A stretch of 64,000 bases of DNA. Source: Leucoraja ocellata. Taxonomy: Eukaryota. Location: contig JAWMAR010000143.1 of assembly GCA_036785375.1 (NCBI GenBank), positions 3,968,001-4,032,000 of the forward strand, in the 5' to 3' direction. The notes under the pieces are model-generated. The model had not been told where the DNA came from and did not search any database. It was given only the letters and a program-made list of their open reading frames with translations. The position numbers were made by a program, and so were the translations under genes. Numbering within the stretch: the first letter of the stretch is position 1; each line of letters starts with the position of its first letter. This document shows, one piece after another, positions 4,881 through 49,616 of this stretch.

Positions 4881-4885
4881 AAATG

Positions 4886-8179: not shown

Positions 8180-8750
8180 TTTGTCCATTCATAGGATGTC
8201 GATGTTGTTGGTGACGCTGGTATTTTTTGTCCATTCCTAATTTCCACCTGTACTGTGAAGGTAGTTAAGAAAGGATATGGATTCACAAATTGGACTGATC
8301 ATTGTAAGGATAGCATATGTCTTTCAATGAAGAAATCCTCAAGGACATTTTTGTACCAGATTTATTTTGTACGACAATCCGGTGGCTTCTTCGTTTCCAA
8401 TGCTGAGATGAATTTTTTAAACAAACTAGGTGTATAGGATGAAGGTAGACAAAAATGCTGGAGAAACTCAGCGGGTGAGGCAACATCTATGGAAAGAAGG
8501 AATAGGTGACGTTTCGGGTCAAGACCTGAAGAAGGGTTTTGACCCAAAACATCATCTATTCCTTCGTTCCATAGATGCTGCCTCACCCGCTGAGTTTCTC
8601 CAGCATTTTTGTCTACCTTTGATTTTTCCAGCATCTGCAGTTCTTTCTTAAACATGGATTTAGTCAGATAAGTTTGTATTTCCCAACTGATATTATGGGT
8701 ATTAATCTTATGTCTTCGGATTAATGGTCCAGATCTTTGATTGCCCTCCA
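8180..8750 (-). mobile_element. Old chondrichthyan SINE-like element, interrupted by a hairpin unit
   Basis: Degenerate reverse-complement similarity to the + strand copy at 53860-54150 and to a shark SINE as I recall it (ggattgtcgtacaaa, aggaatggacaaa...gcgtcacc). Split at about 8430-8654. Confidence 0.45.
8441..8654 (+). mobile_element. Fold-back (hairpin) Penelope pLTR unit
   Basis: An arm of about 85 bp (aaggtagacaaaaatgctggagaaactcagcggg...) is followed by its reverse complement (...cccgctgagtttctccagcatttttgtctacctt) and an unpaired tail gatttttccagcatctgcagttctttcttaaaca. ctgaagaagggt lies at the centre. No clear TSD. Confidence 0.88.
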
Positions 8751-11237
8751 TTGAACCCTAAAAGTGTGGTAAATGTATTAAGCAAATGCAGGTTGCCAAA
8801 AGTCCATTCTGTCAGATGAAAGGGAGGTAAATCAAGAAAATGTTACATCATGCAATAGCTGGAATTTAAATCATCGAGTTCATGGAATCGAAACAGGCCA
8901 CTCTTTCCATTTTATTTCTGTGGTTTAGATTACTCCTGCATCACAGCTCTGTTTTTGGCCTTATAAAGCACTCATGAAACTATACGCATCTACATGGGAT
9001 GAAGTTGCATCCAATTCTTCACTTTAGCAGTGAAACACGCTGCCCAAAGATATTGGAGGTCTCTGAATACCATGGTTGTTATTTTACAGTTTTGGTTACA
9101 TGGTAGATCAGATTTGTGTACGAAACCTTACTCAAAAATAGTTCGATTGAAAATGCTAATGGATCCACGTTTACTTAGCTATCACTTTGATATTGAATAC
9201 AAATTGGAGGAGAGTAATTCGATGTAAAAGTTGGGAAATGTATACATTGTCAATCCATACATTTAGAATTAAAACTGCTGTTATGTCTTATGAGCTGGGT
9301 TAAGTATCATACTGAAAGTATTGCTTACAGCCTTAATATCTGCATATAATTTAATACATAATTATGGATTTTGGTGGTCATAGATAATGAAAAAATGGCC
9401 AAACATTTGGAAAAGAAAACTGAGCAAATTCATACAGCTAATTTTGAGATTTCATTTTTCACAAGTTTGAGAAAAGATATGTAATTGAAGCCAGCCATTT
9501 TAAGTGTTCTTGAAATCATCCACAAGAAATAGAGGGAATGAATCTTCATCTTATCTTACTAAACTTGTTGAATCGTTGAGCAGCCTTGAACAACCTGGGG
9601 AAGTGTTCCTAATGTCATTTCAAAAAGATTCGGCACAAGGGTTTACTAGCAAAGAGCAAGAGTAAATCAATTGATTGTAATCCTTTAACATGGTTCAAAA
9701 ATAAAGGATGTTTACAAGGGGAAGGGATTACACATTCATAATGTGTTAGCTAACAACTCAGTAAGCGGTGGAGCAATGAGACCTGAAGTTAATCTACTGA
9801 GGTTTTACAAACATGGAATGAAGACATCATGATGATGGAAGATATGACATTTTAGTACATGTCATGAAATGATGGAAAATAGAATCCTCCCCCCTTTAAA
9901 TGTGGCCCAGACCAGAGCTGCAAATCGCTGACCGAGGCCAACTTTGCAGGTCGATATCTTAGCCCCTGGGTAACCTAGGCTGACCATTCTGGTACCAATG
10001 GAGTTCTCTCAGAAGTCATGAACTCTGTTGGTCCAGCAGAACAGGTAATCCAGAACGGCTCTGGCACTAAGGGTACCGGGAAAATCGGTGATGGGACTGT
10101 ATCGCAAATGACAAAGTAAACAACACAAAGAGGTTGTCCATGCCATCAACAGAAAGGCAGGGTTAAATAGAGTGATGTGTATCTATTGATGGAGCTATTG
10201 TGCATTCATTTTTGATTACGCTTTTTCAGCAAGATGCAATAATCCATCCCAATATTGTACAGAGGATTTTCGCTAATCTATCAGTTTTGTCCTTGTGAAC
10301 CTATCTGCCAAGAGAGTTTACAAATAGGGATGCCTCCTAGAGTTTGGACTAACCTGGATAAAAATAGAACAGTTTCCTGGTGCCAATTGGTCTTGCACTG
10401 TAACTGAGTGACTGATGACTTACTTAATATTCAAATAGGAAGAACCGAGCAGCTTTCTGCTCACTTTCCCATTTAAAAACTAAGTAGACATTGTGACTGT
10501 TGTGGCTAACCTTCCTAAATCTGTTTAAATTAATTTTCACTATTCCCTCTGCGTAATGTATATTTTTCTATGTTAGAGACCAAAAAAAAGATGGCAATGC
10601 CCCTGGTCTCTGGTCACAGTGTTGTTTCTCATTCAGTGCTCTCAGGACAAATCTCAATTGGGATATTTTATCTTGTGAGGTTTTTCAAGTCATTGAATAA
10701 GATTTATTTTGACAATGATACTAGTTCCTGCAGTAAATCTGCAACCAATACTGCTGAAGCAACTTGTAGAGGGATGTACAAAATAATATATGTTCATACG
10801 TAAGTATAACATTCAAATGATCGATCAATTATTTACCATTAAAACACCTAACATAACAAAACATCTTATGTGGCGGCAGGATACTAACAGACAACTTGAG
10901 ATCCGATTTATAATTGGCATACAAAAGACATTATATATTGAGACATTATTTTATGTAACCATGCTTTCAGACATTCCAGACACCACATAGTGGATATTGT
11001 CTGCAATGTTAGAAGATACCTACTTGTCCAGACATCAAAAATCAATATACCAGCATTCATATTTGAGGATTCATTTGCTTAGATCATCTGAAAACTCGTG
11101 AATTATTTAACAGTACAAGTGCAGATTCAATATTGTAAAAATCAGTAGGTTAGCCTAAGCTTCCAAATAATGTGCAAAAAAATCCTCATTACGGTTTTCT
11201 TGATGTAGATTTGCAGACCAGTTGAGATTTAAGTAAT

Positions 11238-12370
11238 ATGAGGTGTTCCATACCAGGACATCCGAGATGTCCTAATTCTTTAGCGAACAGGGGTTCCCCT
11301 CTCCCAATGAGGTGTTCCATCCCCGGACATCCGAGATGTCATCATTCTTTAAGGAATGGGGATTCCACTCTCCCATCATAGATGAGGCTCTCACTTGTGT
11401 CTCCTCGGTACCCTGCAGCTTCGCCCTTGCTCCCACTCCCCCTCCCTCTCCCCATCGCCCTCCCCCTCCCCCTAGTCACAACAGAGACAAAGTCCCCCTA
11501 GTACTTACCTTTCCACCCATCAGCCATCGCATACAACACATTATCCTCCCAAATGTTTGCCTCCTCCAACAGGATCCCAACACTAGTCACATCATCCCAT
11601 CTCCACCCCTTTCCGTCTTCCACGGAGAACGTTCACTCCGCAACTCCCTAGTTAATTCATCCCTTCTCACCCAAGCTACCCCCTACCCAGGTACCTTCCC
11701 CTGCAACCGCAGAAGATGCAACACCTGTCCCTATACCACCTCCCTCAATTCTGTCCAGGGACCCTGACAGTCCTTTCAGGTTAGGCAAAGGTTCACTTGC
11801 ATCTCCTCCAACCTCATCTACTGTATCTGTTGTTCAAGATGTGGACTCTTACACATCGGCAAGACCAAACGTAGACTCGGCGTTCATTTCGCTGAACACC
11901 TTCGCTCAGTCCGCCTGAACATACCTGATCTCCCGGTTGCTAAACACTTTAATTCTCCTTCCCATTCCCACACTGACCTTTCTGTCCTAGGCCTCCTCCA
12001 TTGTCAGAGTGAGGCTAAATGCAAATTGGAGGAACAGCATCTCATGTTTCGCTTGAGCAGCTTACAGCCCAGCGAATATTGATTTCTCTAACTTCAAGTA
12101 ACCCCGGCATTCCCTCTCTCTCTATCCCTCCCCACTTGTCGCACTAGCTTCTTGTTTTCACCCAACAATAAGCTAGCAATGGCCTGTTTCCTTTATCATC
12201 ATAACTTTTCTGCATATCTTTCATTCATTGTTCCTTTATCTCTCTACATCATCATCTATATCTCTAGTTTCCCTTATCCCTGGCCTGTCTGAAGAACCGA
12301 AATGCCACCCATTCCTTCTCTCCAGAGATGCTGCCTGATCCGCTGAGTCTCCAGCTTTTTGTGCCTATCT
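11238..12370 (+). mobile_element. Penelope-like element (Neptune type), 5'-truncated
   Basis: RTSEMSSFFKEWGF...DKVPLVLTF, GTFPCNRRRCNTC, GIY-YIG region (atctactgtatc...tacacatcggcaagaccaaacg) and a pLTR with deleted hammerhead stem (ctgaagaaccgaaat). Starts with a 69-bp tandem duplication. Confidence 0.9.
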
Positions 12371-15149
12371 GTGAGTAAAGTAAATTAGGGTAGAACCCCT
12401 TCTATGGAGCGTCCTGTTTACTCCAAGGTGACGTGAAAAGGCCAATAGAAATACTGAGCTTTATTACTTATGCTATTAAACATTCAATTCCCAGGCACAA
12501 TAAAGAGAAATGATGCTCACAGCACTACCCAGAATTTCTGGGGCTTTACCCACTTGGTGTTCTAAGCCTCGCCTTGCAGTTTGCAAAGAGGTTGCATCAT
12601 GGGATTTTTCTTTGGATCCTGGAAATCAAGGATTTCAATTTGAGCAATTTGAAGATAAATCAGTGGATAACTAAAGGAAATATGAGAATATGAGGATTTT
12701 GTCCCCTCCAGTAATACCTATGGGTGCTCCCCCAACACGGAGTCCTCGCAGGATCTTGCAGGCATACATTGCTGATCACGTGTCAAGCGGAAGTGCAGGA
12801 GAGGACAATTAGCCCCTTAGCTTTGATCTTGACCACGTAGATGCAGTCAGAGACTTGAATTTCTCTCTTTAGCTTTCGTTGACTCGCCATTTGTTCCATC
12901 ACCCAACCCAAGCCATTGCTTTTAGCGCAATATGCCCAGCACATATCCAGCCATAGTTTCCAGGTCATTGTAGTATTAGTAGTCATTCTGTGACTGCATT
13001 GCTCACCGTGTGATCTTCAGAGGCAGCAGACATTTCCATTTAAAATAGCAAATCTTAGGCCTGCACAAAAGAGCTCATTGCTGAACGGAGAAATTGCAAT
13101 GCATTTACAAAGCCAGATTCCATTATTTATGTGTCATAAGAATTTTTTATGGAACAGTTTGACACATAAAGGATACTTTACCTTACTTTACTTTAAATGG
13201 ACTAAATGTGATGATAGGAATGTAGTTTTGTACTTCAACAAAATGTGGGAATTTCTTGGTTCACATTGTAGAGTGTGAGGCCAATTGCAGCCATATTTAT
13301 TTGGGGGAGAATAAAGCAACTGTTGATTGTGAAGCAACTTTCAGGGTGAATAAAATATTCAGAGAGAGCAACTGTATAGAGAGCACAGCCATATTTACTG
13401 TGGAGACTACAGAAGGAAGGAATGAAGAACGGAAGCAACATCACCGACATGGAGAGCTGCTAACCGCCAGTTAGCAATGGCAATGAGGCCATCCCTTCTT
13501 CCATTGCTAACTCCACCACAGCCAAATAGAACAATGTTGACCAAAGTTAAATGACTTTAACTAAGTTAAAGCAGTTCAGGGTTAAAAACACACCTTCCTT
13601 TAATGTATTATGCAAAGTTGCCTGTCAGTTGCTTTTATCTGATTCTAATACTGCCCAGCAAAGCAGCAGGATGTCCATCCCACATCTGATGTTATTCCTG
13701 CTCTTGTATGTTTACATTTATCCAGGGCATAAGATCCCTTCTATGCATTGGAATTACTTGTTATCCGTGGCAACTGATGAGCATGTTCTCAATAGGTTAT
13801 ATTATAAAAGTTGGATTTTATAGATTCATTTTAATGATAATTATATAGTTAAATTGAGCTTTTAATGTGGATAAAAATAACAATAAGTGTACTCAATAAT
13901 TGCAACAGAAGATGAACAACCGCAATGTAACTTTTACGCTACTTTTTGAATCACAGTTATTGTGAGAAGCAGTTTAGGTAGCAAGCAACTTGTGAACTCA
14001 AATCAAAACAAACTGCAAGGCTAGTTATTTTATTTGTTGGTGCTGCCACATGGCAGATAACAAGAATCCAAGACATTTTCACCAGGCTATCATCAGGAAC
14101 AGTTACAGGCTCCTCCGAATGTGCTTGTTACGTTGTGAAGAAGTGTCCTTACCCGAAATGTTATCTGTACATTTCCCTCCATGGAGACTACTTAACCCAC
14201 TGACTTGCTCTACTTTGGCTTTTGCTTAAGAATGTCAGTGTTGTGCTTTATAACTATGGCCATGCCCTGTATCTCATATTCATGTTCAGTTTGTGTAATG
14301 GTAAATCCAAGCAGTCATAGCCCACCGCTGCAGAAGATTGGTTTGAGCCTCCAGGATTTACACTAAATCTTGTTCTCAAGGTAAAGATTTCCAGAGACCA
14401 CCAGTTGATAGCATTAAAGGCATTGCAAATACTCTTGTGAAAATATGCGTCTTCTTTGCCATCGGTTACAGACGCATTGAGGGGAGAAGTGAATATCTTT
14501 GTGATTTGTATAAATAGTAGCAAACCGTGATAGAATATTTGGGTCATGTGATTCAATAACCACGAGCACTTTCAGGAATCCTGCCACCCTGTAGTTGCAG
14601 ATCTCTGTTAAAGTGCTGTTGATTGTCCATAGAAAGAGAATGAAATTTGATGCTCAAGCAAACCGTGCCATAGACCAGCTTCACATATCAGTTACACTCT
14701 TGATTGGCTAATATTTTCAATGTTTCCAGTGGCTGTTTGATCTTGATACATCTAAATCGATGCAGTTATCACTGTGTTAGTGCCTGGCTGCAAGCTCCTT
14801 TCTGCTGTGTAATGTTGCTTTTCATAATTGCTACTCTGATGAATTGGACCTCATTCTTGTACAGGTATATAGACATCTACCTGAACATTCTGATTTTGAA
14901 GTACAAGCAGATGTGTGCCAGTTACCTGAGCTACATCATGACCTACTCTGACTTGTTTCTTGTCCTTTTAAGAAAAGCAAAGTTTCAATTGATTTCCTGG
15001 ACAGCACCAGATCAAACGTTGCGAAGGCTCTTGAACACCTCGGTTAAAAAAGCTAGGATGAATTAAATGCTAAGAAGCCTCAGCAATGGGTTCTTCTTCA
15101 CAATGTTGTCATTGTCTTGTTAAACATTTGATTTAAACCTGTAGATAAA

Positions 15150-15760
15150 TGAGAAGGCCGTTCAGCCCCAATGAGTCTACGCCAACTTTTTTGAAAAGTA
15201 ATTCAATTAGTCCCTTGCAAAAGTGAAATATTGTGAATGCTGAAATCAGTAAAAGGTCACTGACCTGAAACTTTAATTGTTTCTCCTGCTCCATAGCCCG
15301 TTAAGTATTTCCAGCCTTTTTTGTTTCAATTATATTAGTCTATGCCTTTGTTCTTTTGTATTCCTGTAATTTTTCTCCTTCAAGCATTTATCCTTTTTTG
15401 TTTTGAAGTACGCTGTTGAACCTGCCTCTCCCAATCAGTCAGGCAGTGCATTCCAAATCCCAGCCACATGTTGCAGAGACAAGTTGAGCTCATCATTCTG
15501 GTGGGACTTATTTTCCTAATCATCTTGAATCTTTGCCCTACGATCCTTTAGAAACACTTTTTCTTTACCTACTTGAACTGAATAATTTATGGGTTTTTAA
15601 AACATAATTTAAGTAAACCTACCCTTCTTATACTCCCTTGCTGTAAGAAAAATAATCCTTACTTCTCCATTGTATCCACGTGGCTATAATCTCTTGTTCG
15701 TGGAAACGTTCTTGTTCAAACTCGAGATCATCTTCAAGTGAGGTGCCCAGAATGTAATAT
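15150..15760 (-). mobile_element. Old CR1-like 3' fragment with an embedded old pLTR remnant (about 15225-15325)
   Basis: aggccgttcagccc...aggcagtgcattccaaatcc resembles the reverse complement of CR1 3' ends. aaggtcactgacctgaaac is a decayed pLTR core. Confidence 0.5.
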
Positions 15761-15829
15761 TATGGAAAGCAAAAATCCATTAAAAGAGCATTTTTGTATA
15801 AATGAACAATGTCTGCAGGCCATGGAAGT

Positions 15830-15975
15830 GACAGTCAATGGTCAGTTTGATAGTGCTTCTGCCTCACAGCTTGAGTGACCTGGATTCTGTACTGACCTAT
15901 AATACTGTGTGGGGAATTTGCATGTTCTCCTGACTGTTTGTTTAATACCGGGTGCTCCAGTTTCCTTACATTTTT
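15830..15975 (+). mobile_element. HE1-type tRNA SINE, 5' portion, old
   Basis: tgcctcacagc...gacctggattc...gggaatttgcatgttctcc...ccgggtgctccagtttcc; same family as 46396-46709. Confidence 0.65.
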
Positions 15976-16976
15976 TACATAAATACTAAACCTGATGGAT
16001 GAAATGGATAAAGCAGACTGGAATTTAGGCTGCAGTGTAACAGTATCATAATGCCAAGTGTGGAACAACTGCAAAAACTATTGAATATCTGAACTAAATT
16101 TTAAAAAGCTAGAAATATTCAGCATATCAGGCAGCACATGTACAGGAAGAGAAACGGAGTCAATATATATTTCAGGGTGATATTTTATTGTCATCTTATT
16201 TCTGGGTAAAGGTGATGGATTTAACAGTAGTCAAAAAACAAAAGAAGCAGTCCATATGAAAATCTTCAACCTGAACCATTAGTTCTGCTTCCTTCTCCAT
16301 AGTTGCTGCCTGAACTGCTAAGTATTTCCTGTGTTTTACATTTTCTTTTCACATCATTATATATTGCTTTATTCATCTGCTTTCTCAATGTGGAAGGTAT
16401 TTTCCTCAACTAATTGAAATCCAAAAGAGAAAAAGTAGCAAAATGGGTTAGAATCCTTCAATAAAAAAACTCCAAACAGCTTTCTGCTCAAAAGTGCAGA
16501 CTTGGATGCTCGCAGCAGATTTATTTCTAAATAAAGTAAAAGTTATATATTTTTGTTTAATATGGAATAACACAAGGATTGTGTTTAATGTGCTTAATTC
16601 ATTGCAGATACATTGATGAATTGAAATGAAAGACCAAAATTTCATTGGAATTCTGGTAGATAAACTGTGTTATGTAGCTATCACCAATAACAATGAGGTA
16701 ACCATTGCCAGTTAGCCTTGACAAATGTGGAGTAGGAGAACATAGTAGATTAAGAATTTCGGACCTGTATACATACAACAGCACAAGCTTTTCCTTCAGA
16801 AATATAAATACTTGAAACCCACAAGGAACAGTATGCAATAAGGTTGACATTCAAGAGAGGTTCTTATTTTTAGGGTACTTATTGTATCATAGTTGCTGTT
16901 ACTATGAATGTTATACTTCAGATAGCATCACAGGATAGCATCCCTCTTTATTGCAGCAAAGAAGGTTTTACTGATG

Positions 16977-17212
16977 TGTAGAAAGGAACTGCAGATGTTG
17001 GTTTACATCGAAGAATGCTGGAGTAACTCGGTGGGTGAGGCAGCATCTCTGGAGAAAAGGAATAGGTGATGTTTCGGGTCGAGAACCTTCATTAGACTGA
17101 AAGTTTGAGTGAGACTGAGGGGAGAGGGAAGGCTGACTCCTTTCTTCTCTCCAAAGATGCTGCCTGTCCCACTGAGTTACTGCAGCATTTTGTGTATCCC
17201 TCTCCCCTGAGT
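16977..17212 (-). mobile_element. Fold-back Penelope pLTR unit (reverse orientation)
   Basis: Full reverse pLTR plus a partial inverted arm (ttcttctctccaaagatgctgcctgtccc...). Flanked by ggttttactgatg (16964-16976) and ggtttaacagatg (17213-17225), 11/13 identical. Confidence 0.8.
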
Positions 17213-17979: not shown

Positions 17980-18730
17980 GTCGTAGAATCAGAGAGTTAC
18001 ACAGCATAGAATCAGTCCCTTCAGCTATCATGTCCATGCTGACCTTTTTGCTCATCTATACTAATGTCTTGTGTTCTGTATCCTTCTGGGCCTTGTCCAT
18101 TTAAGTACTTCTTTAAATGTCTCTTGATGGTGCAATTATATATGACCATTCAGCCCACGAGTCCGTGCTGACCTACCGTCGCCTACACACTAGTTCTATG
18201 TTTTCCCAGTTTTGCGTTCTACACACCAGGGGCAAATTACAAAAAACATTCCACTCAAATCTGCTTTAAAATTACTTCCCTTAAACGTATTCCCTCTTGT
18301 TTCTGACAGCCTTACCATGGAAAAATTATTCTGACTATATCCTCTCTGCACATCTCAAAACTTAATATACCTCTATGTTACCCCTCAGGCTTTTCCACTC
18401 CCAGGGAAATCAACTCCAGCATATCAAATTGCTCCCATAATAAAGTCTTGTAATCCAGGCAACATCATATGGAATTTTCTTTACTCCCCAACATAACCAC
18501 ATTCTTCCCATAGTGCAGCAACTAGAACTGCACACAGTCCTACAAATGCAGTCTAACCAACATGTGTAGGAAATAACGGCAGATGCTGGTTTAAATTGAA
18601 GATAGACACAAAATTCTGAGTTACTGCAGCATTTTGCGTCTATCTGCAGTCTAACCGGTGTTTTGTAAAGTTGCAACAGAACTTCCCAACTTTTACATTC
18701 TGTGTCCAAACTTATGAGGGCAAGCATGTC
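17980..18730 (-). mobile_element. CR1 3' fragment with a nested SINE piece (about 18145-18245) and a pLTR unit
   Basis: Minus-strand ORF 18410..18727 reads ECKSWEVLLQLYKTPVRLQ (CR1 EYKSWDVMLQLYKTLVRP). The 3' tail matches the CR1 end. Confidence 0.75.
18563..18644 (-). mobile_element. Collapsed fold-back pLTR unit (82 bp)
   Basis: tgtgtaggaaataacggcagatgctgg...gatagacacaaaat followed by ctgagttactgcagcattttgcgtctatc. Direct repeat tgcagtctaacc at 18547-18558 and 18645-18656. Confidence 0.8.
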
Positions 18731-18736
18731 ATATGC

Positions 18737-19820: not shown

Positions 19821-20270
19821 GAAGGATACAAAGTGTTGGAGTTATTCAGCAGTTCAGGCAGCATCTCTGGAGAATATTGATAGTGAACATTTTGGTTGCG
19901 ACCTTTATTCAGACTGATTGTGGGGGGGGGGGGGAGGAGCCAGAATAGGGGAGAGGAGGGACAAAGAGTGGCAGCTGGACACAGGCAAGGGGGATGTTTG
20001 ATAAGCAGATGATTGGAACAAAGGCTAGAGATAAAGGCAGAAGGTATTAGGCAGGATTGAAGTTGTGAACTGTGAAGCTTGTGGGTGGAAAGTCGCAGGA
20101 GGGGAGAAATATGTGGGAGTCTAGCTGGGGCACCGGGGGGGGGATGAACAAGGGTGGTGTGGGGGAGAAGGGGAAGTGGGTTAGTACAATACCTAATATT
20201 GAAGAATTCAATGTTCATAGCATTGGGTTGTAAGCTACCCAAGCGGAATATGAGGTGCTGTTCCTCATGT
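19821..20270 (-). mobile_element. Penelope 3' end (GIY-YIG C-terminus and pLTR)
   Basis: ORF 19772..20326 contains EEQHLIFRLGSLQPNAMNIEFFNIR, matching the ORF end at 6290-6365. A pLTR follows. Confidence 0.85.
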
Positions 20271-20871: not shown

Positions 20872-21105
<234 letters not shown>

Positions 21106-21931: not shown

Positions 21932-22017
21932 CGGTAGACAAAAATGCTGGAGAAACTCAGCGGGTGAGGCAGCATCTATGGAGGAATAGGTGATGTTTCA
22001 GGTCGATTCAGATTCTT
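21932..22017 (-). mobile_element. Collapsed pLTR unit with perfect TSD
   Basis: ggtagacaaaaatgctggagaaactcagcgggtgaggcagcatc arm. Direct repeat ctcaattcctg at 21921-21931 and 22018-22028. Confidence 0.85.
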
Positions 22018-24539: not shown

Positions 24540-25460
24540 TCACATGAACCTAAGGACGTGAATCGGGAGAAGGCCTCTCATTTCTTCACCAATCTCCACC
24601 AATCAATAAACTTATGGCTGATCCTTTACCTCGGCACAGTTTCCTAATTAAACCCCATGCCTCCTGATTCCCTTAAATTACGAAATTTTATCTATCCTTT
24701 TCCTAGCCATACTCAATCATCAAATGCTCTTGAGCAGAAAATTCCAAAGATTCACTACGCTTTGGTTGAGGAATTTTCTTCTAATTTCAGTACTGAATGG
24801 CTGATCCATAGTTTCGAGTGTAACCGCTGATTCCAGATACCTCAGCCAGGACAAACATGATCCATGCATCTACCCTGTCAGGCCCTGTAAGAATTTTGTA
24901 TGTTTCAATGAGATCACCTCAAATTTGTTTAAACGCATGAGAGTGTGTGGTGTAATCTCTCCTCAAAGGACAACATTTCCAAGCCAGGAATCAATCTGGT
25001 GAAGGTAGACACAAAAAGCTGGAGTAACTCAGCGGGACAGGCAGCATCTCTGGAGAGAAGGAAAGGGTGGCATTTTGGGTCAAGACCCTTCTTCAGACCC
25101 GAAATGTCACCCATTCCTTCTCTCCAGAGATGCTGCCTGTCCCATTGAGTTACTCCAGCTTTTTGTGTCTATCTTTGGTTTAAACCAACATCTGCAGTTC
25201 CTTCTACACATCAATCTGGTGAACCCTGATTAAACTTCATCTATCATAGGTAGACTGTTCCTTAGGTAGGGTGGCATGACCTGTCCACAATATTCCAGGT
25301 GCATTCTCACCAACCCGCTGTATAATTTCACTGAGGTGTCTTATTCTTGTATTCAAATGATCTTGCAACATTCTGTTTATCTTCCTATTTATCTGTTGTA
25401 TCAGTAGGTTAACTTTAATTTATGTACAAGGATACTCAAGTCTTTCCAAGCACCAATCAT
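24540..25460 (-). mobile_element. Old CR1 3' fragment interrupted by a hairpin unit
   Basis: The minus strand reads FTRLIPGLEMLSFEERL across the insertion (CR1 FTRLIPGM..LSYEERL). aattccaaagattcactac is the reverse complement of the RVVNLWN region. Confidence 0.75.
25004..25209 (+). mobile_element. Fold-back Penelope pLTR unit with 14-bp TSD
   Basis: Inverted arms tagacacaaaaagctggagtaactc... and ...gagttactccagctttttgtgtcta, plus a tail. Perfect direct repeat atcaatctggtgaa at 24990-25003 and 25210-25223. Confidence 0.93.
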
Positions 25461-25670: not shown

Positions 25671-25898
25671 ACAAAATACAAAGAGCAGATCAGGCAGCAT
25701 GTGCGGGGAGACAAGGGAATGGACAGACAATGTTTTGGGTTGAGACCCTTCTTATGACCCATCATCTAAATCTGAAGAAATGTCCCGACCCAAAGCATTG
25801 TCTGTCTATTCCCTCCACAGATGCTGCCTGACCCACTGTATTCCTTCAGCACTTTGCATTTTGCTTAAGATTCCAGCATCTGCAGTTTCTTGTATCAC
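25671..25898 (+). mobile_element. Older fold-back pLTR unit
   Basis: caggcagcatgtg...gggaatggacagacaatgttttgggttgagaccctt against tctgaagaaatgtcccgacccaaagcattgtctgtctattccc...gatgctgcctg. Flanks catatgaatccagt (25657-25670) and catatgcatctaat (25899-25912), 11/14 identical. Confidence 0.8.
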
Positions 25899-30500: not shown

Positions 30501-30629
30501 TATCTATGGTTTCCAAATTCCACACCTGAGAATTTCACATCTGGTTGTAAACTGAAAAAATACATCTAATTGTCATGAATAATCAAGAACCTAAGGATCG
30601 TTTATGGTGAACCGAGGACAATTTTTGTT

Positions 30630-34680: not shown

Positions 34681-34770
34681 CATCCAAGAAGATGTGCTTG
34701 ACTGGAATTGAAGATGGACCCCAGTGGTGTTTTCTCCAATGTAAATGTGTTATCCAGAGGTCAGGACTAG

Positions 34771-34904
34771 TGTGTAGGAAGGAACTGCAGATGCTGGTTT
34801 AAACCAAAGATAGACACAAAAAGCTGGCGTAACTCAGCTGGGCAGGCAGCATCTCTGGAGAGAAGGAATGGGTGACGTTTCGAGTTGAGACCCTTCTTCA
34901 GACT
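34771..34904 (-). mobile_element. Solo Penelope pLTR (134 bp) with perfect 11-bp TSD
   Basis: gtcaggactag at 34760-34770 and 34905-34915. The minus strand starts agtCTGAAGAagggtctcaactcGAAACGTCaccc and ends ttccttcctacaca. Confidence 0.93.
34874..34901 (-). ncRNA. Minimal hammerhead ribozyme-like core
   Basis: CUGAAGA-A-GGGU(cuca)ACUC-GAAACGUC. All catalytic-box positions are intact; predicted cleavage after GUC; stem I only about 2 bp. Confidence 0.65.
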
Positions 34905-39599: not shown

Positions 39600-40370
39600 G
39601 AAAGGGGGGGGGGGGGGGGAGGGGGTGCACCACTCGGTGAAAGTAAGTATGGAGCTGCAGCAGAAGATTAAAAAAAAGCAAATGGTGTATTTGCCTTCTT
39701 GATGAGAGGATTGAATCAAGGAGTGCAATTGTAATTAATGCAACTGTTATTATATCAAAAAAAGTAACATCCCGAGAAGACTGAACAGACTGATGCAGGA
39801 ATGTTGTTCCCAATAGTGGGGAAGACCAGAATCATGGCTCACAACTTAAGGATATGAGACAGCTATTTAAGATTGAGATGAGAAGTGATTTCACCATCCA
39901 AAGAGTGAAATACCTGTGAAATCCTCAACCAGGGATGGTGGTTAAGGCCAATTCAAAAATATTTTCGTGAAGGAGTTAGATATGGTTCTAATGGCATGTA
40001 GACAAAAAATGCTGGAGAAACTCAGCGGGTGAGGCAGCATCTATGGAGAGAAGGAATTGGGTTGAGACGTTTCGGGTCAAGACGTTTCGGGTCAGTCTGA
40101 ATAAGGGTCTTGACCCGAAACGTCACTAATTCCTTCTCTCCATAGATGCTGCCTCACCCGCTGAGTTTCTCCAGCATTTTTTGTCTACCTTTGATTTAAC
40201 CAGCATCTGCATTTCTTTCTTAAACAAATGATTCTAATGGCTATGAAGATAAAGGGATATAGGAAGATAACAGTAACCCAGAATTCTGGATGTATAGCCA
40301 TGATCACATTACATGACGGGGCAGGCTCAAAGGGTGGAATGGCCTACTCCTATTCCTATTTTGTATGTCA
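39600..40370 (+). mobile_element. Old CR1 3' fragment interrupted by a hairpin unit
   Basis: gatgcaggaatgttgttccca...accagaatcatggctcacaactta and the 3'UTR agccatgatc...gcaggctcaaagggtggaatggcctactcctattcctatttt. Confidence 0.7.
39996..40227 (+). mobile_element. Fold-back Penelope pLTR unit with 14-bp TSD
   Basis: Arms gtagacaaaaaatgctggagaaactcagcgggtgaggcagcatctatggagagaaggaatt and its reverse complement. TSD atggttctaatggc (39982-39995) / atgattctaatggc (40228-40241). Confidence 0.92.
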
Positions 40371-41328
40371 TGGTAAATGTGTTCATTAGTAGGCTTTATT
40401 ACATTTCATTTAAAAATGAACTCATAAAAATTGGATCCACAGTTTGACTGACAGCTATTGCATTGAATTGTCCCTGTTTAGGGGCTTGCTTGTGTTCTCT
40501 AACAATGACAGCTTTTTGGTTAAATTTTGCTATTGTTTATGTCTAAACAGGCACTCTGTTACTGTGCATTGATTAGGGTGTCAGCCTTATTGATGTGGCC
40601 AAAATCCAAGCGAAAATGTTTCAGAAAGATCAGTCACTCGAGGGAAATAGATTTTAAATAATAATGTAATAAAAAATACACCTATGGATGGGTAAAAAAT
40701 ACTTGTCTTGCCGACAATCCCTACATTCCATTGATAAGTACAAAGAAGCTCCGGTACTCAGGCAGTTATCACAAAGCAGCAACTGCAAACACTCAGTCCA
40801 GTGGTAAGATAGTATTGTCAAAAGTCATAATTTTGTGTGATTTAATGTTTGCAGTGCACTGAGATTTTGATTCCTAGTGCAACAAGTTATACATTTTGAC
40901 TGGATTTTGAAAAAAGCGTTTACATTTTTAGTAATAGCAGATAAATACTTCATTCATTTGCATAGCTGTGAAGTCTAGGACAACCAAAATTCTCAGACCT
41001 GGGGTTCATTTTTATTCTGCAAGTGTATTAGACCACTGAGCAAGGTAGGCAGAAGGTGAAATATTGATCAGCCATGATCGAGCTGATTGGCAGAGCCACA
41101 TCAGGGGCCTGAATACATACTTTTATTACTAATTAGGGCTAATTAGACATCAGACTGACTTCTTGACAAAACCCCAAAATATGCCTGTGGGTGCAGATAC
41201 AAAATATTGAAGACTTGGCTGGATGCAGCAAAAGTAATTCCTTGCAAATAAAGGACATTTACTTAAAACATTCAATGGTACTTACCTGTGGGCTTTCCAA
41301 ACACCTAATAAAGATACTTAGTATCAAT

Positions 41329-41555
41329 AGACACAAAATGCTGGAGTAACTCAGTGGGACAGGCAGCCTCTCTGGAGAGAAGGAATGGGTGACATTTCGG
41401 GTCGAGACTCCTTCTTCAGAAGGTCTGAAAAACAGGTCTCTACCCGAAATGTCACCCATTCCTTCTCTCCAGAGATGCTGCTTGTCCTGCTGAGTTACTC
41501 CAGTATTTTGTGTCTTATCTTTGGGTTAAACCAGCATCTGCAGTTCCTTCTTACC
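41329..41555 (+). mobile_element. Fold-back Penelope pLTR unit
   Basis: Inverted arms of about 90 bp meeting at cttcttcagaaggtctgaaaaa. Flanks tacttagtatcaat (41315-41328) and tacattgtatcaat (41556-41569), 12/14 identical. Confidence 0.9.
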
Positions 41556-41683
41556 TACATTGTATCAATGTCCATTTAACCACTTACACGTCATCATTAT
41601 ATGTTTTCACTTTTGCACCTTGATGTGTCAGACATCGCAAATATGTATAACACTATAGGAAAAGTGCATAAACAAAGTATTTT

Positions 41684-42537
41684 CAACCAGGGCATCGGAG
41701 ATGTCCCCATTCTTTAGGGAACGACTATAGACTACAGATGAGGCTCTCACCAGGGTCTCCTGTATATCCCGTAGCTCCACTCTCACTCCCCATCCCCCCC
41801 CATATGTAACAAGGACAGAGTCTCCCTTGTCCTCACCTTCCACCCTACCAGCCGTCACATACAACAGATAATCCTCCGGCACTTTCGCCACCTCCAACCA
41901 GATCCCACCGCTGGCCACATCTTCCCATATGCTCCCCTTTCGGCTTTCCACAGAGACTGTTCCTCCGTAACTCCCTGGTCAATTCGACCCTTCCCACCCA
42001 AACCACCTCCTCCCCTGGTACTTTCTCTTGCAACCGCAGGAAATGCTACACTTGTCGCTTTACCTCCCCCCTCGACTCCATCCAAGAACTCAAGCAGTCT
42101 TTCCAGATGATGTCGAGGTTCACCTGTACCTCCTCCAACCTCATCTATTACATCTACTGTACCAGGTGTCAACTGCTCTACATCGGTGAGGCCAAGCGCA
42201 GGTTTGGCGATCGCATCGCCGAACATCTCCACTCAGTTCGCAATAATCAACCTGACATCCGGTGGCTCAACTCTTCAACTCCCCCTCTCATACCGAATCC
42301 GACCTTTCTGTCCTGGGCCTCCTTCATGGCCAAAGTGAGTCCCACCGCAAATTGGAGGAGCAGCACCTCATATTTTGCTTGGGTAGTTTACACCCCAGCG
42401 GTATGAACATTGACTTCTCCAATATTCAGGGAGTCCTTGCTTTCTCCCTCCTTCCCCTCCCTTTCCCAGTTCTCCCTCAGCCTACTATCTCCGCCTCTCC
42501 CCCCCCCTCCCCCACCTCGGCCTGAAGAAAGGTCTTA
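41684..42537 (+). mobile_element. Penelope-like element fragment (Cys knuckle and GIY-YIG), ending inside the pLTR hammerhead
   Basis: CNRRKCYTC; NLIYYIYCTRCQLLYIGEAKRRFGDRIAEHL; EEQHLIFCLGSLHPSGMNIDFSN; terminates at ctgaagaaaggtctt. Confidence 0.9.
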
Positions 42538-44330
42538 GAGCCTGATTCTTAGAGCCCGGCAACCTGAGAAGGGCGACTTTCCCTACTTATTGCTTTCTTT
42601 CTGTGGACCAACTCTCAATCCACACTAGTATATTACCTTCAATTCCACGTTCGAACAGACTTGATTAGACTTGCAAAGACTACTGAAAATCACTATACAG
42701 GCATGTCACATCCACTGGTTCCCCTCATCTACTCTACAAAATGTATTCTCAAGATTACTCAAACATGATTTGCCTTTCATAAATCATATTATTATCTTTT
42801 AAGCCTATTGATTTTATATCTTTTTTTATGAATATCAGCATTTTCCCTGATGTCAGTCTCATTCTTTCTTTCAGTTTTTTCCGCCTCGCTCTTATGCCCA
42901 GGTAATATTCTGTACCCGAGTTTTCCTGGAAACATTCCGCCCACCGTGTTGGGAAGTGGACAATCCTTGAGACTTGAACTGATTGTGAGTGTGATCTAAG
43001 CACACGGCCACATCAGCCACTCGTAATGACTTTTGCAGTGGTTCGACATTTCTATCATAATTGTAATTGAGTGGCAGAACTTTTGGAAACCATTAATATT
43101 CAGTCCTTTCAATTTTAATTGTTTCAATTTAAACCCATTAGAAATTACACAGATCTCTGGAACATTGACTGATGAACAATATAAACTGTTGTTTTACTCA
43201 GCATAGCAATGCAAGATCAGGATTCAAGATTAAAACAGTGTTTTATCATCGTATTCAATGGATGATTGTTTTGCATTACATGAGCTGAATACCTTTGAAA
43301 TGACACACACATGCAGGCCGTTATTAAATGCTTAGTCAGCACTTTTGGTGAGGATGAGATTACATTGCTTTTTGAATAGCAGTAGAAGAACTAAATCTGC
43401 ATCTTAAACTGCAAAATTTCCACTCACGTTTCACCTTGAATACTGAGGAAGGACAGCCAGAAGATTTTTAAGATGGGTTTCTTGAAAGATCCTTTGCAGT
43501 AATGTGATGGTGTAATATTGTACAGTTTGAAAAGGAAGCTAAGATTGTTAAGGGAGTATTCCTGATTTGTAAGATGCTATTAGTAAATTGCTTCCAAACG
43601 CACAATTTTCTGAAGTGCATACATAATTGTTTTACATGGAGACAATTTGGAACCAAGATAAATGCAGCCCCAATTTCATTCATTTTTTTAGTCAAAACCA
43701 CAAAGATGCTTTAACCATGCCTTTACCATTATATATTAATCATATAATATTCACATATATATTCTTACTCTAATTACCACATACCATTCTTCAATAGGCC
43801 CCACAAATGTCTTGCATTGTTGACTTTATACCAACCATATACTTATTTGTATTATTTTTTTAAATAGCCAAGTAATCATTTAAATATTTTATGAATGTTA
43901 GATATCCCTTGTTTCAATTCAATGCGATCTGAATTTTACAGGTAGCTGTTGCATCTGTATAATCCACAAAAAGTTCATCAACTTTATATGTGGTACATTT
44001 CGTCCTCTTTGGTCACCTGCTATGGCTATGCACTTTGTTAATGCCAACTTGTTATTTTTTTCCTTTTCCAGTCTTATCCTGTGTGATATTGCCCAAGTAT
44101 TTTCAACTAATGTTAGGAATTTAAACCAGGTTAGAAGATGTTGGCCTTTAAAGAAGTACTTTAAAAATAATCAATTTAATGTACTTCCATAAAAATGGGT
44201 CGTAAGGGTCTCGATTTATTCCCTAATTTGAAGGTCATTACCCCTCACCACTGCACTTTGAATGTATGCAGAAAAACTTGCAAGAATGGGGAAAACAAAT
44301 GGAATATCCGTGATAGAGTGAGACCAAATG

Positions 44331-44614
44331 AGTTTAGTTTAGGAATACAGCCCCTCAGTCCACTGAGTCCACATTGACCACTAATCACCCATACACTAGT
44401 TCTACGTTATCCCACTTTTGTATCCTACACTAGTGGAAATTTACAGAAGCCAATTAGCCTATAAACCTGCACATTGTGTGGGTGGAAACTGGAGAACCCA
44501 GAGAAAACCCACGCTTTCACAGGGTGAATGTAAAAACTTTGCACAGACAGAAAGGATCAAAACTAGATCTTTGGTGCTGTGAGGCAGCAACTCTACTGCT
44601 GTGCCACTGTGCTG
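44331..44614 (-). mobile_element. HE1-type tRNA SINE
   Basis: (agttt)n tail, gaagccaattagcctataaacctgcac, gaaactggagaacccagagaaaacccac, and head gctgtgaggcagcaactctactgctgtgccac. Confidence 0.85.
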
Positions 44615-45191
44615 TTAATGTAAGTTAGAATCTCATTATCCATATTTGTCTATGTGATGTGTTGTTTATAGCAATGCAGTAGGACATGCTCAACCGGCCA
44701 GATTATACTAATATAAAAAGGAAAAACTGTGCCAAGATGATTACAGGTACAGTTGGATCATTTCGTTCCTGTCACTTTATCAATCATATACAAATTCAGG
44801 CAAATTAATTATCTGAATTGTTGTTTCTTCTCTGACGTTATTTAATTGCCCTTTTATAGAACAGTACATGATCAGAACCTTCCAACCACAATGTCTGTGC
44901 CATTGTTGGATTTATTCCTTTATTTCCATATATAATATATACAGTGCCCTCCATAATATTTGGGACAAAGACCCATCATTTACTTATTTGCCTCTGTAAT
45001 CCACAATTTGAGACTTGTATTGGAAAAAATCACGGGTTAAAGTGCACATTGTCAGATTTTAATAAAGGCTGTATTTATACATTTTGGTTTCACTATGTAG
45101 AACTTACAGCAGTGTTTATACACAGTCCCCCATTTTAGGGCACCATAATGTTTGGGACACAACAATGTAATGTAAATGAAAGTAGTCATGA

Positions 45192-46189
45192 TTAGTATTT
45201 TGTTGCATATACTTTGCATGCAATGACTGCTTGAAGTCTGCGATTCATGTACATCATCAGTTGCTGGGTGTCTTCTCTGGTTATGCTTTGCCAGGCCTGT
45301 ATTACAGCCATCTTTAGCTTATGCTTGTTTCTGGGGCCTAGTCTTCTTCCGTTTTCTCTTTGGGTGATTGACTTGGAATTGGGTGATTGACTTGGAATCT
45401 GAGGAATTAACCATTTTTTAGCTTTGAAAAACCCATTTGTTGCTTTAGCAGTATGTTTGGTATCATTGTCTTGCTGTAAAATGAACCGCCAGCCAATGAG
45501 TTTTGAGGCATTTGTTTGAACTTGAGCAAATAGAATGTGTCTATACACTTCAGAATTCATTATGCTACTAACACCACCTGTTATATCATCAATGAAGACA
45601 AGTAAGCAAGTAACTTCAGCAACCATACATGCCCAGGCCATAACACCCCCACCACCGTGTTTCACAGATGAGGTGGTATGCTTTGGATCTTGGGCAGTTC
45701 CTTCTCTCCTCCATACTTTGCTCTTGCCATCACTCTGATATAAGTTAATCTTCCTCTCATCTGTCCACAAGACCTTTTTCCAGAACTGTGGTTGCTCTTT
45801 GAAGTACTTCTTGGCAAACTGTAACCTGGCCATCCTATTTTTGTGGCTAACCAGTGGTTTGCATCTTGCAGTGTAGCCTCTGTATTTCATGAAGTCTTCT
45901 GCGGACAGTGGCCATTGACAAATCCATAACTGATTCCTGAAGAATGTTTCTGATCCGTCGGACAGGTGTTTGGGGATTTTTCTTTATTATAGAGAGAATT
46001 CTTCTGTCATCGGCTGTGCACGTCTTCCTTCACGATTAGTAAGCCCACCAGTGCTCTCTTTTTTCTTAGTGATGTTCCAAACAGTTGCTTTTGGTAAGCC
46101 TAAGGTTTGGCTGATGTCTCTAACAGTTTTATTCTTGTTTCTCAGTCTCATAATGGCTTCTTTGACATTGGAACAACTTTGGTCCTCAT
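45192..46189 (-). pseudogene. Tc1 transposase pseudogene
   Basis: Likely ATG at 46189. N-terminal HTH (KEAIMRLRNKNKTVRDISQTLGLPKATVWNI) is frameshifted from ORF 45192..45890, which carries VLWTDE, KHGGGGVMAW and LQQDNDTKH. The third catalytic (SPDLNPIE) region is destroyed. Confidence 0.92.
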
Positions 46190-46395
46190 GTTGATAAACA
46201 GCAATAAAAGTTTCCAGAGGTGATCGAAAGATTGGAGGAAAGACTAGGTGCTGAGAGCTCTCTTATACCTGCATTAAGGAGGCAATTAAACACGCCAGAG
46301 CAATTACAAACACTTGTGAAGCCATGTGTCCCAAACTTTATGGTGCCCTGAAATGGGGGGATTATGTATAAACACAGCTGTAATTTCTACATGGT

Positions 46396-46709
46396 TTAGT
46401 TTAATTTAGAGACGCATCGTGGAAACAAGCCATTTGGCCCACCAGGTCCACACCGACCAGTGATCCCCGAACATCAACACTATCCTACACTCACTAGGGA
46501 CAATTTTTTTTAACATTTACCAAGCCAATTAACCTACAAACCTGTATGTCTTTGGAGTGTGGGAGGAAATCGAAGATCTCGGAGAAAACCCACGCAGGTC
46601 ACGGGGAGAATGTACAACTCCGTACAGACAGCATCCTTAGACGGGATCGAACCCAGGTCTCCAGCGCTGCCTTCGCTGTAAGACAGCAACTCTTCCGCTG
46701 CCACCCAAA
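46396..46709 (-). mobile_element. HE1-type tRNA SINE inserted in the Tc1 right TIR
   Basis: Minus-strand head ggtggcagcggaagagttgctg...GGTTCGATCC (B box); CR1-like tail aatggcttgtttccacgatgcgtctctaaattaaactaa. Confidence 0.92.
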
Positions 46710-48594
46710 TGAAACCAACATGTGTCAAAATGGCCTTTATTAAAATCTGACAATGTGCAATTTAACCACATGTGATTTTTTCTATTGCAAATCTCAAATT
46801 GTGGAGTACAGAGGCAAATAAATAAATGATGGGTCTTTGTCCCAAAGATTATGGAGGGCAATGTTTCATCCTTCCAGTCCCCTGTCACCACTCACACCCA
46901 TGCTCCTTCTCCTTCTCAATGATTTGGACCATGTATCTTTGAGTATTGCCAAATAGCTTCAGCATCAACTTTTATCCATTCAATATTGTTATAAATTAAT
47001 CTCATCCTTTACAGCCACATTGGTATCACCCTCTTCTCTAACAAAGATAGGTCGGTGCAAAGTATTCATTTCGTATCACAACCATACAGTCTGTCTCCAG
47101 AACGTTTCTTGTTTATTGTCTCATTCTTTGTATATATTTATAAATGGTTTTTTTTGTTTCTCTTTGACGTTAGCTACTAATATATTTACATATTCATTTT
47201 TTTAAGTATTTACCCATTCTTTATGTAAGATCTTCGTTCTAGTATTTGTATTCATTTTGATTTTTGCCACGATTCTCCTTGCTTTATTTTAATCTCTTAA
47301 GTCTTTAGCCATCCAGAGAATTTGAGCTTTAAATGCATTTGCTTTTCCCCTTGAATTTCCTCCATCTCTATTTTGCCATTTTGAAGGGTTCTTGTTGATC
47401 AATCGCTGTATTGCTTTTCTGTTTTGGTTTCAATACTTCTTGGGAAGTTCCCCTTTTAACTCATTGATATAAGTCTACCTACTGTGTTATTGGAGCCGAC
47501 CTTGGGATAGACCACAGTTGACCTGCATGTGCACAGTTTAGCCTAATCTCACATATCACTGACTTGACTGTGCTCAGCATGACAGCATGCTCAGATAGAG
47601 TTACCTCGTGGTGTCTCGTGGGGATTGCTGCACTCCTTCTAGAGGAAATCAACTTCAGAAGAAAAGGATTACCACCATAGCTCTTGAGTCTTTTTGTATC
47701 TCTTGCACTATTTTGTGGATTGCCCATGCAATCCTTTATCCTGTATTTGTATTGATCAACCCACAACACTAGTATTTGGTTATGCTGCAAGCAGTCTTTG
47801 CTAAACACATTTTTTTTTGTTTCCTTAAAAGGGTCTCACCTCCACTTTTAGATATTTCACAAGGTGCCAAAATAAATAGATGTGGCCCGTTAGTCTCTGC
47901 CTATTGTATCTTTAATGCAAAATCACACTATTTGAACAGTAAATATGCTGCAGTGGATACATATTTTGGTCATGCTGTCTCCGTGCACTGTAATTAGTGT
48001 GTGATGATCCTGTCATTGCTCAGTTACTTAATATAATGAATGCAATTTCATCAAGTGAGAACCTCTAGTTGTTAGGAGGTAACACAATCAGTTTATATTT
48101 TGCTAGTGTGTTGGAGAGAATTGTACATCGTCAATGGGAGGTATTGTACACAGGCAGGCAAGCAGATATTTTCTCATGTGTCTCCTGTGATTTCAGCTGA
48201 ACTGTGCAAAGGAAGTCTATACTCAGAAAATTATGTTTCATATTACTTTGGCAATTGTGATTTGGACTAATTTGTAATTTAGTTTAGAAGGCAATTCCAA
48301 TCACATTTCTCACTCTTATCAATTGTGGTTTTAGCAGTAATTGTACCTGAACGTAGTACAAGAGGTATGGCTTTAGAATTCCGAGGGGTTGGAGCCATTT
48401 CTTAGTCTAATGGGACCTGCCACTGAGCAGGCTTCACCCCAACAGACCGTGACACTATCGCTGCATGGAGGAGGGGTGGGGGGCTGCTGAAGCTATAGGG
48501 AGAGTTTCATCTTGTTGAGGAGGAAGATAGGAATTGAAATGAGAATTTAGGAAGAAGAGAAACAAAATGTAAAGCAAATTAGAACAGTAGTTGT

Positions 48595-48735
48595 AAACAT
48601 AGAAACATAGAAAATAGGTGCAGGAGGAGGCCATTCGACCCTTCGAGCAAGCACCACCATTCATTGTGATCATGGCTCATCGTCCCCAATCAACAACCCG
48701 TGCCTGCATTCTCCCCAAAACCCTACATTCCAAGC
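48595..48735 (-). mobile_element. CR1 3' terminal fragment
   Basis: (aaacatag)n tail and aataggtgcaggaggaggccattcgacccttcgagc...gatcatggct. Confidence 0.85.
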
Positions 48736-49458
48736 AATCAGAAAAAGGTTAGGATGTCAATACTAAGAGTGCTCTATCTGAATGCTCATGTTATTCACAA
48801 CAAGGTAAATTAAAGGCACACATAGTTGATCTAATTACCATTGCATAAATAAAACGTGCAATTGTTAGATACATTTTACAAGTCAAGCAGCATCTGTAGA
48901 AAAATAAACAAAGCTAACATTTCATGTTAAATATCCCTTGCCTACCCTGGGAAAGAGATATAAAAGAGATTGCTAAAACTTTTATGAACACATAAAAATT
49001 GAAAAGACAGCAATGGTTAATGTGGGTCCCATACAGACAGAGTCAGGAACATTTGTTGAATGGAAATAGCAAAGGATTTAAACCATTACTGCCAGCTACC
49101 GTTGTAGAAGAGATCACCTAAAATATGCTGTATATATTACAGAATCAAGGATCTAATGAAAAGAAAGTGAAGGAACCAAGTATTAGTCATAAAGTTGTAC
49201 TAGAGAAGTTTGTGAATTTAAAAGCTGACAAATCCAAAGAAACTGATGATTTCCATTCCAGAAAAGGGTGGCTTTAGAACTAGTGAATGGTCTTACTATC
49301 TTCCAAAGTTCCATCGACTCTGGAATTGTTCCTGTGAGATGGAGTAGCTAATGTATCCCCATCATTTAACAAAAGAGGCAGAGACTGCAGGGAACACGGA
49401 CATGTTAGCATAATGTCAATAGCAGGGAAAGTGTTAAAATCACTAACAAAGAATGTAA

Positions 49459-49616
49459 GGTAGGCAAAAATGCTAGAGAAACTCAGCGGGTGAGGCAGCA
49501 TCTATGGAGCGAAGGAAATAGGCAACGTTTCGGTTCGAGACCCTTCTTCAGTCTGAGTTTCTCCAGCATTTTTGTCTACCTTCAATTTTCCAGCATCTGC
49601 AGTTCCTTCTTAAATG
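49459..49616 (+). mobile_element. Partly collapsed fold-back pLTR unit with 10-bp TSD
   Basis: Left arm runs to cccttcttcagt (intact hammerhead core on the - strand), then jumps to ctgagtttctccagc and the tail. TSD aagaatgtaa at 49449-49458 and 49617-49626. Confidence 0.9.

Follow-up and report, generated by a model that had tools for sequence, protein, structure and literature searches.

Short terminal-repeat units in a skate genome window are probably dead-end insertions of Neptune-type Penelope elements

Eleven short non-coding units lie in a 64,000-nucleotide (nt) stretch of DNA from the skate Leucoraja ocellata (NCBI GenBank assembly GCA_036785375.1, contig JAWMAR010000143.1, positions 3,968,001 to 4,032,000 of the forward strand), here called the window. 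Judging from their sequence, these units are end-pieces of Neptune-type Penelope elements, namely copies of the terminal repeat (pLTR). It is probable, at about three chances in four, that each of them arose de novo, as a dead-end insertion by the reverse transcriptase (RT)/GIY-YIG protein of such elements. This reading draws on insertion between target-site duplications (TSDs), two fixed 3′ ends, the combination of a long arm with a short one, variable junctions, and the mixing of subfamilies with copies that bear an open reading frame (ORF). An earlier note, made from the letters of this DNA, had listed 11 units composed only of pLTR, and a self-search with three window copies confirmed the position and makeup of all 11. 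It had read them either as a non-autonomous family resembling short interspersed elements (SINEs) or retrozymes and mobilised by the Neptune RT/GIY-YIG enzyme, or as a stereotyped abortive insertion product with a boundary set by the ribozyme. The abortive product and the retro-insertion itself are supported here; the ribozyme boundary is not.

Positions within the pLTR are numbered from the C of the hammerhead core CUGAAGA (+1), and units are named after their first nucleotide in the window. End positions were tabulated for 25 arms and copies. Eight of the 11 units are two-armed and three (851, 21932 and 34771) are single arms. All eight two-armed units consist of one long arm, which carries a tail, and one short arm; this is clear in seven and deduced from the TSD in 25671. 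An inverted, 5′-truncated pLTR is present in these eight units and also in an ORF-bearing copy at 49684-50755, which adjoins unit 49459 and was missing from the earlier note. Because that copy carries a short arm too, the units may be seen as the short end of a continuum. The common hairpin architecture described earlier thus holds for the two distinct ends, but neither for the three single arms nor for units 8441 and 39996, in which the short arm halts within helix II (+6 to +10) and the long arm extends to the core. Likewise, calling the units hammerhead-centred is only partly accurate: the pLTR does hold a minimal hammerhead, but unit 18563 has no hammerhead sequence at all and the core is intact in just one unit of 11 (34771). 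Unit 16977 has a pyrimidine-rich upstream stretch of about 45 nt and finishes in an additional 15-nt piece (17198-17212), which matches the opposite strand of the unit's own internal pyrimidine-rich segment (17113-17129); this end piece suggests a further template jump.

TSDs flank ten of the 11 units. They vary in length from 10 to 14 nt and have no fixed sequence; five are perfect, four of 10-14 nt have one mismatch (851, 25671, 39996 and 41329), and the 13-nt repeat of unit 16977 has two. None was found in the flanks of unit 8441, nor was one found for the copy at 49684-50755. Of 400 random intervals, two have repeats of 10 nt or more with no more than one mismatch, and one has repeats of 13 nt or more with up to two mismatches. 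The TSDs of the units are real and far above chance, and the five perfect repeats of the earlier note were reproduced exactly.

The 3′ ends of the arms fall at two places. Short arms end at +88 to +97 and long arms at +123 to +131, and the ORF-bearing copies share both ends (pLTRs at 6459 and 50644, long; 12290 and 19825, short). Four public runs (X22, X15, X1 and X3) were aligned to window positions 5500-6699. X22 consists of poly(A) RNA, and its source organism is either related or identical; 6 in 100 of its reads were sampled, of which 10147 aligned. The loose ends listed for this run include two with heterogeneous flanks at 6588 (+128; 1314 reads) and 6555 (+95; 431 reads), as well as piles at 6538 and 6545 from which the consensus letters seem to continue to the short end. 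Contigs of X15 end at 6554 and 6588, and those of X1 and X3 at 6588. The spacing of the two ends is 33 nt in X22 reads and about 33-38 nt in window copies. As matching ends are found in reads of other runs, the two-end pattern is not confined to the window but extends beyond it.

An 8-bp helix that pairs about +50 to +57 of the pLTR with +112 to +119 (columns 59-66 and 118-125 of alignment A1) is near-invariant in three subfamilies. It is the sole helix of the consensus, encloses the short end, has its 3′ strand in the tail and shows no covariation; it is a candidate structure for the choice of start site by the RT. Overall, the monomer pLTR does not fold better than its shuffles (z from -0.79 to 0.36 in five copies). 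Regarding X22, strand bias is 2.2-3.3 to 1 over the ORF (5500-6379) and 1.1 to 1 over the pLTR, and the ORF RNA may be mostly antisense if the library is of the usual type. Signals resembling RNA editing in this run are inseparable from divergence among copies.

The junctions between arms differ in all eight two-armed units. Several have 1-4 nt of microhomology (3 nt in unit 25004), short filler or a small duplication, and are located in the TCAG-T-CTGA palindrome that precedes the core or in helix II. An arm tree was built from the shared part of 21 sequences (98 columns; 18563L, 18563R, 49459R and the broken 42536 copy left out). It groups arms by subfamily, with ORF-less arms mixed among ORF-bearing copies, and a clade of ORF-less arms is weakly rejected (p value of the approximately unbiased test, p-AU, 0.035). 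The arms cover at least three subfamilies, which also have ORF-bearing copies. Within units, arm identity goes from 59/79 (25671) to 80/82 (39996), a range so wide that the hairpin shape must have arisen repeatedly over a long time. The two arms agree in subfamily in seven of the eight units, in two of them on the basis of 15 and 28 nt. In unit 16977, diagnostic sites differ between arms (44/56 identical) and the subfamilies disagree, which suggests that two templates were used at least once.

A mechanism that would produce these features can be proposed. The GIY-YIG domain would make a staggered cut of 10-14 nt and thereby provide two primers. One complementary DNA (cDNA) would start from the tail site and its partner from the short one, as suggested by the two-primer biochemistry of an Anolis element. 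Both would usually stop at about -3 to +1 and would then be joined head-to-head by the microhomologies in the palindrome or helix II, and repair would leave the TSD. Extension of only one primer would yield a single arm. If the long cDNA came instead from the downstream pLTR of a tandem transcript, a classical copy with inverted pLTR, ORF and tail would be obtained. Separate priming of the two cDNAs is the version we favour to some degree, and snap-back self-priming is a possible but rather unlikely one. Solo copies are probably dead, because the Anolis protein depends on RNA that lies past the start sites.

Several points weigh against this proposal. The diversity of junctions is that of eight units, and the short alignment behind the arm tree gave a single starred branch. 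Among the 15 of 253 read joints listed, there is no strand-change joint. In 8441 and 39996, both arms have a near-private variant in common, as would be expected from snap-back and equally from two cDNAs copied from a single source. The biochemical model, from Anolis, is a Poseidon element and not a Neptune element. The excess of pLTR over ORF in X22 counts in favour of the proposal: depth over the pLTR (4967) is 7.6 times that over the last ORF bins, 6220-6379 (657), and 23 times that over 5500-5899 (213). This ratio may, however, be inflated if other subfamilies align at 80% to the pLTR and not to this ORF. Finally, the sharp 5′ stop of the arms is unlike random 5′ truncation and leaves room for a short dedicated RNA.

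This stop lies beside the ribozyme motif. The pLTR begins with a minimal type I hammerhead that comprises the core motif, an extra base before helix II, a G-C pair and the palindromic 15.2-16.2 pair. Two intact cores are found in the window (in unit 34771 and in the ORF-bearing copy at 6461), compared with 0.03 expected from shuffles; Rfam reports no hammerhead at E values up to 1. Eleven of 20 arms, spread over eight of the 11 units, start at -5 to +1. The 20 comprise 19 arms from units plus 49684, and the ambiguous 16977L and 21932 were left out of the 11. Under a uniform spread over 100 nt, p is about 4e-9, or 7e-8 with five ORF-bearing copies added, values to be taken as a guide only, as the interval was picked post hoc and arms from the same unit do not count as independent. 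X22 reads are cut at a C-run (6424-6463), so the 5′ boundary is not measurable from them; in this poly(A) run, no site where many molecules begin or end is listed.

Three causes may be considered for this sharp stop beside the ribozyme motif. Tentatively, it could be the 5′ end of the RNA. For four arms (851, 34771, 39996R and 49684), the alignment begins with the A at -3; this A is +1 in a match to the initiator YYANWYY, and in that register there are partial matches to the motif ten element (MTE; up to 8/10) at +18 and a sequence like the downstream promoter element (DPE) at +28. Nevertheless, none of nine copies tested has all three motifs, and the match was noted post hoc and is about half forced by the hammerhead core; the register, which resembles an RNA polymerase II (Pol II) initiator, is a lead only. 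In D. virilis Penelope, helix I marks the end of the pLTR intron, and transcription starts 121 nt upstream of that end; a start so far upstream argues against an RNA 5′ end, if the architecture is common. A block at a splice acceptor or pyrimidine tract is possible, if doubtful, and a pyrimidine tract and CAG do lie just before -1. The third and rather unlikely cause is fold-back driven by the palindrome, which has been proposed for self-priming (PMC3846280) and which fits the single arms that stop at -3 less well. A spliced template with a common first exon was rejected, as the units show no common upstream sequence. The ORF stop region (6360-6460) and other ORF ends do resemble a splice donor, and the pyrimidine-rich untranslated region (UTR) ends in CAG before the core, an arrangement similar to the D. 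virilis pLTR intron; no spliced reads at ORF ends are found among the reads listed.

A more specific, speculative and on balance unlikely model combines several of these elements. Neptune RNA would start at the A three bases before the core, with the ribozyme doubling as an internal promoter. The RT would act on its own 5′ pLTR, start about 95 or 130 nt inside it and run off at the cap, giving a cDNA comparable to a 'strong-stop' product. One such cDNA per nicked strand, made perhaps by a protein dimer, would be joined head-to-head with the other. If this were true, pairs of strong-stop products would make up most Penelope insertions in the genome, and the inverted pLTR, long a puzzle, would represent the strong-stop cDNA that the second primer yields.

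Among alternatives to dead-end insertion, an improbable one is that a single pLTR, spanning -3 to the tail, acts as a short non-autonomous element with an internal Pol II promoter: solo copies would be transcribed and re-inserted in trans, hairpins being formed at insertion. It would account for the sharp 5′ end at the A of the initiator match, with its MTE-like and DPE-like companions, and for the large excess of pLTR over ORF in X22. Moreover, non-autonomous pLTR derivatives have been proposed (bioRxiv 10.64898/2026.07.22.740005) and are described for Chlamys. However, the Anolis protein needs RNA past the RT start region (the first 172 nt of the ORF), a stretch that would be missing from solo copies, and ORF-less arms are interleaved with ORF-bearing copies in the tree. 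In X22, within the limits given above, no molecule-end site was found and pLTR strands are near 1:1, and the incomplete and partly forced promoter-like match does not help this explanation.

Far less credible is a SINE- or retrozyme-like family spread as a pre-formed hairpin RNA, the first reading of the earlier note, which is largely refuted in this window. It would fit the common overall shape and strong folding, although the value for unit 25004 (z = -20.6) is trivial for an inverted repeat. Against it, no junction is common to any of the eight units. The earlier note had proposed comparing left and right arms, and they do not form clades: a short-arm clade is rejected (p-AU 1.5e-33), as is a long-arm clade (5e-11), and it is within units that arms match in subfamily. 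There is no tandem array of pLTR length among the six tandem-repeat rows of the window, so the units fall outside the retrozyme definition of bioRxiv 10.64898/2026.07.22.740005, and a search for a tRNA gene or head found none. In addition, judging from PMC4209133, an inverted pair would be unable to form the head-to-tail dimer in which minimal hammerheads act in cis.

Equally hard to sustain is the proposal that hammerhead self-cleavage makes the RNA end that fixes the boundary, as the earlier note had also suggested. The boundary does adjoin the core, and with one of the references the alignment of a single arm (16977R) begins at +29. Nevertheless, the predicted cut lies after +28, and core-less arms from +29 would be expected; at most one of the 20 arms starts at the cut site, and the 11 clustered arms retain the core. 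With arm ends some 30 nt upstream of the cut and the core complete, the boundary is not set by ribozyme cleavage. X22 has no pile-up of molecule ends listed, and the Anolis element can do without cleavage, with no reads beginning at its cut (PMC11167929). Lastly, a miniature inverted-repeat transposable element (MITE) of the DNA-transposon type would be short, non-coding and inverted-armed like the units, but is refuted by TSDs of 10-14 nt without fixed sequence, ends that are asymmetric by 33-38 nt, and homology of the arms, which are the same in kind as the pLTRs of RT/GIY-YIG copies; the earlier note had warned that repeat libraries could mislabel the units as MITEs.

The assignment of the parent element comes from domain and motif features and not from an RT phylogeny. 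Matches to RVT_1 (4838-5338, E 0.0088) and GIY-YIG (5799-6362, E 0.0018) are both below Pfam cut-offs, and Atlas matches to GIY-YIG clusters are at 0.96-0.97. The translations of 5799-6365 and 41810-42406 contain the CX2-5CxxC linker motif and two cysteines between GIY and YIG, features that define the class according to PMC8557442. Only Neptune and Poseidon have been found in vertebrates (bioRxiv 10.64898/2026.07.22.740005). Protein scans of GTDB and IMG/VR gave no relative. Units and ORF-bearing copies are listed in Table 1. In 64 kb, a profile search finds 32 pLTR-like segments, older relics counted in; diverged relics lie at 2949-3028, 14135-14217, 15246-15325, 16096-16344, 51208-51320, 54639-54749 and 57754-57932, and two of these are inverted pairs.

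Table 1. pLTR units and ORF-bearing Neptune-type copies in the window
Feature	Position	Strand	Details
Single short-end pLTR arm	851..947	-	5′ end at -3; 11-nt TSD, 1 mismatch, 840/948
Two-armed, subfamily B	8441..8654	.	Short arm on - (stop +10), long arm on + (start +1); TSD none found
Two-armed	16977..17212	.	Long arm on -, short arm on +; 13-nt TSD, 2 mismatches, 16964/17213
Two-armed, joined far downstream (about +80 / +66)	18563..18644	.	Perfect 12-nt TSD 18547/18645
Single short-end arm, 5′ end rearranged	21932..22017	-	Perfect 11-nt TSD 21921/22018
Two-armed, subfamily A	25004..25209	.	Short arm to -2, long from about +17; perfect 14-nt TSD 24990/25210
Old two-armed, subfamily C	25671..25898	.	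Both arms end -1 to -3, short filler; 10-nt TSD, 1 mismatch, 25657/25899
Single long-end arm, -3 to tail	34771..34904	-	Intact minimal hammerhead core 34874-34901; perfect 11-nt TSD 34760/34905
Two-armed, subfamily B	39996..40227	.	Junction 15-nt duplication, long arm from -3; 14-nt TSD, 1 mismatch, 39982/40228
Two-armed, subfamily A	41329..41555	.	Arm ends -1 and -2; 10-nt TSD, 1 mismatch, 41319/41560
Two-armed, subfamily B	49459..49616	.	Joined mid-palindrome before core, long arm resumes +66; perfect 10-nt TSD 49449/49617
ORF-bearing Neptune-type copy, 5′-truncated	4838..6588	+	RT remnant, CX4CxxC linker, GIY-YIG endonuclease, pyrimidine tract, tailed pLTR 6459-6588
Intact minimal hammerhead core in ORF-bearing copy	6461..6488	+	Predicted cut after 6488
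ORF-bearing copy, short end	11240..12376	+	
Older ORF-bearing copy, short end	19821..20266	-	Endonuclease C-terminus, UTR, pLTR
ORF-bearing copy, pLTR broken at about +15	41686..42536	+	
Classical Penelope layout	49684..50755	.	Inverted short arm 49684-49782 (stop -3), ORF-bearing body, tailed pLTR

This layout is already in print, as are the tail, the hammerhead and non-autonomous forms derived from the pLTR. Insertions of endonuclease-bearing (EN+) Penelope-like elements (PLEs) are described with an inverted, 5′-truncated pLTR and a 30-40 bp tail (PMC8557442, PMC3846280), and they resemble the units in the inverted arm, the tail at one end, the short TSD, palindromes at the junction and heavy 5′ truncation. 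By contrast, TSDs are of 8-10 bp in rotifers and 10-14 bp in the units, which are mostly pLTR alone and have 5′ ends clustered within 6 nt; such clustering is not stated in the available text of either source. Most PLE insertions retain one terminal repeat (bioRxiv 10.64898/2026.07.22.740005). The closest biochemical parallel is PAc, the Poseidon element of Anolis carolinensis, in which two internal RT start sites bracket the tail and whose protein nicks and extends both target strands, hammerhead cleavage being dispensable (PMC11167929). Its hammerhead is upstream of the start sites, as in the window pLTR, where the start sites are those indicated by copy ends. However, PAc belongs to a different clade, and that paper has neither head-to-head joining of cDNAs nor a fixed 5′ stop.

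The minimal hammerheads of metazoan PLEs share with those of the window the CUGANGA motif, the extra base before helix II, the closing G-C pair and the palindromic pair of helix III; most are solitary and truncated, and pairs of motifs that lie on opposite strands, 100-700 bp from each other, are known (PMC4209133). In contrast to these, helix I is of only 2 bp here and most window cores are decayed. Non-LTR retrozymes, which are present in a chondrichthyan (bioRxiv 10.64898/2026.07.22.740005), are likewise non-coding, related to pLTRs and endowed with a type I hammerhead (PMC7229834 and the same preprint). Nevertheless, they are head-to-tail tandems with a complete ribozyme per unit, whereas the window units are head-to-head or single and their core is mostly not intact. 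In the literature searched, which did not extend to Dfam, Repbase and most subscription papers, neither a tight 5′ stop nor twin priming in Penelope is described, nor are hairpin units of cartilaginous fish, although preprint supplements may list them. DNA pattern scans gave no match in viral contigs, metagenomes or GTDB genomes. Six loci from a second metagenome scan matched only 19-29 nt of the pLTR and were taken as chance, and a link to crocodilian Chompy elements was not supported.

The units are therefore mostly ordinary truncated Penelope insertions of published layout, with one testable mechanistic lead. As a claim of a new family they carry little weight, and the main trouble they may cause is in the annotation of repeats and precursor microRNAs (pre-miRNAs). 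For instance, Rfam microRNA models of plants and animals match the hairpins at 41346-41499, 8468-8593 and 25038-25141 below gathering scores (plant models match three hairpins), with a risk of false pre-miRNA calls. On the other hand, the formation of inverted and tandem PLE ends has been called undefined (PMC8557442), and the units are a natural record of this mechanism. With thousands of short copies that are bounded by TSDs and have two fixed 3′ ends and a sharp 5′ stop, a genome-wide census could separate twin priming from snap-back and test whether the stop is the transcript start.

The surrounding sequence contains other repeats. A remnant of a Tc1/mariner-type transposase lies at 45192-45983 on the minus strand (Pfam HTH_Tnp_Tc3_2, E 6.7e-06, below cut-off). 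RT remnants resembling long interspersed elements, which from their motifs we take to be Rex/Babar and CR1, occupy 855-2461, beside unit 851 and around the one sequence gap of the window (1888-2049), and have no Pfam match. A GC-rich tandem pair of 72 nt lies at 57264-57400. Finally, a 69-nt duplication (11238-11375) is located at the 5′ end of the ORF-bearing copy that begins at 11240.

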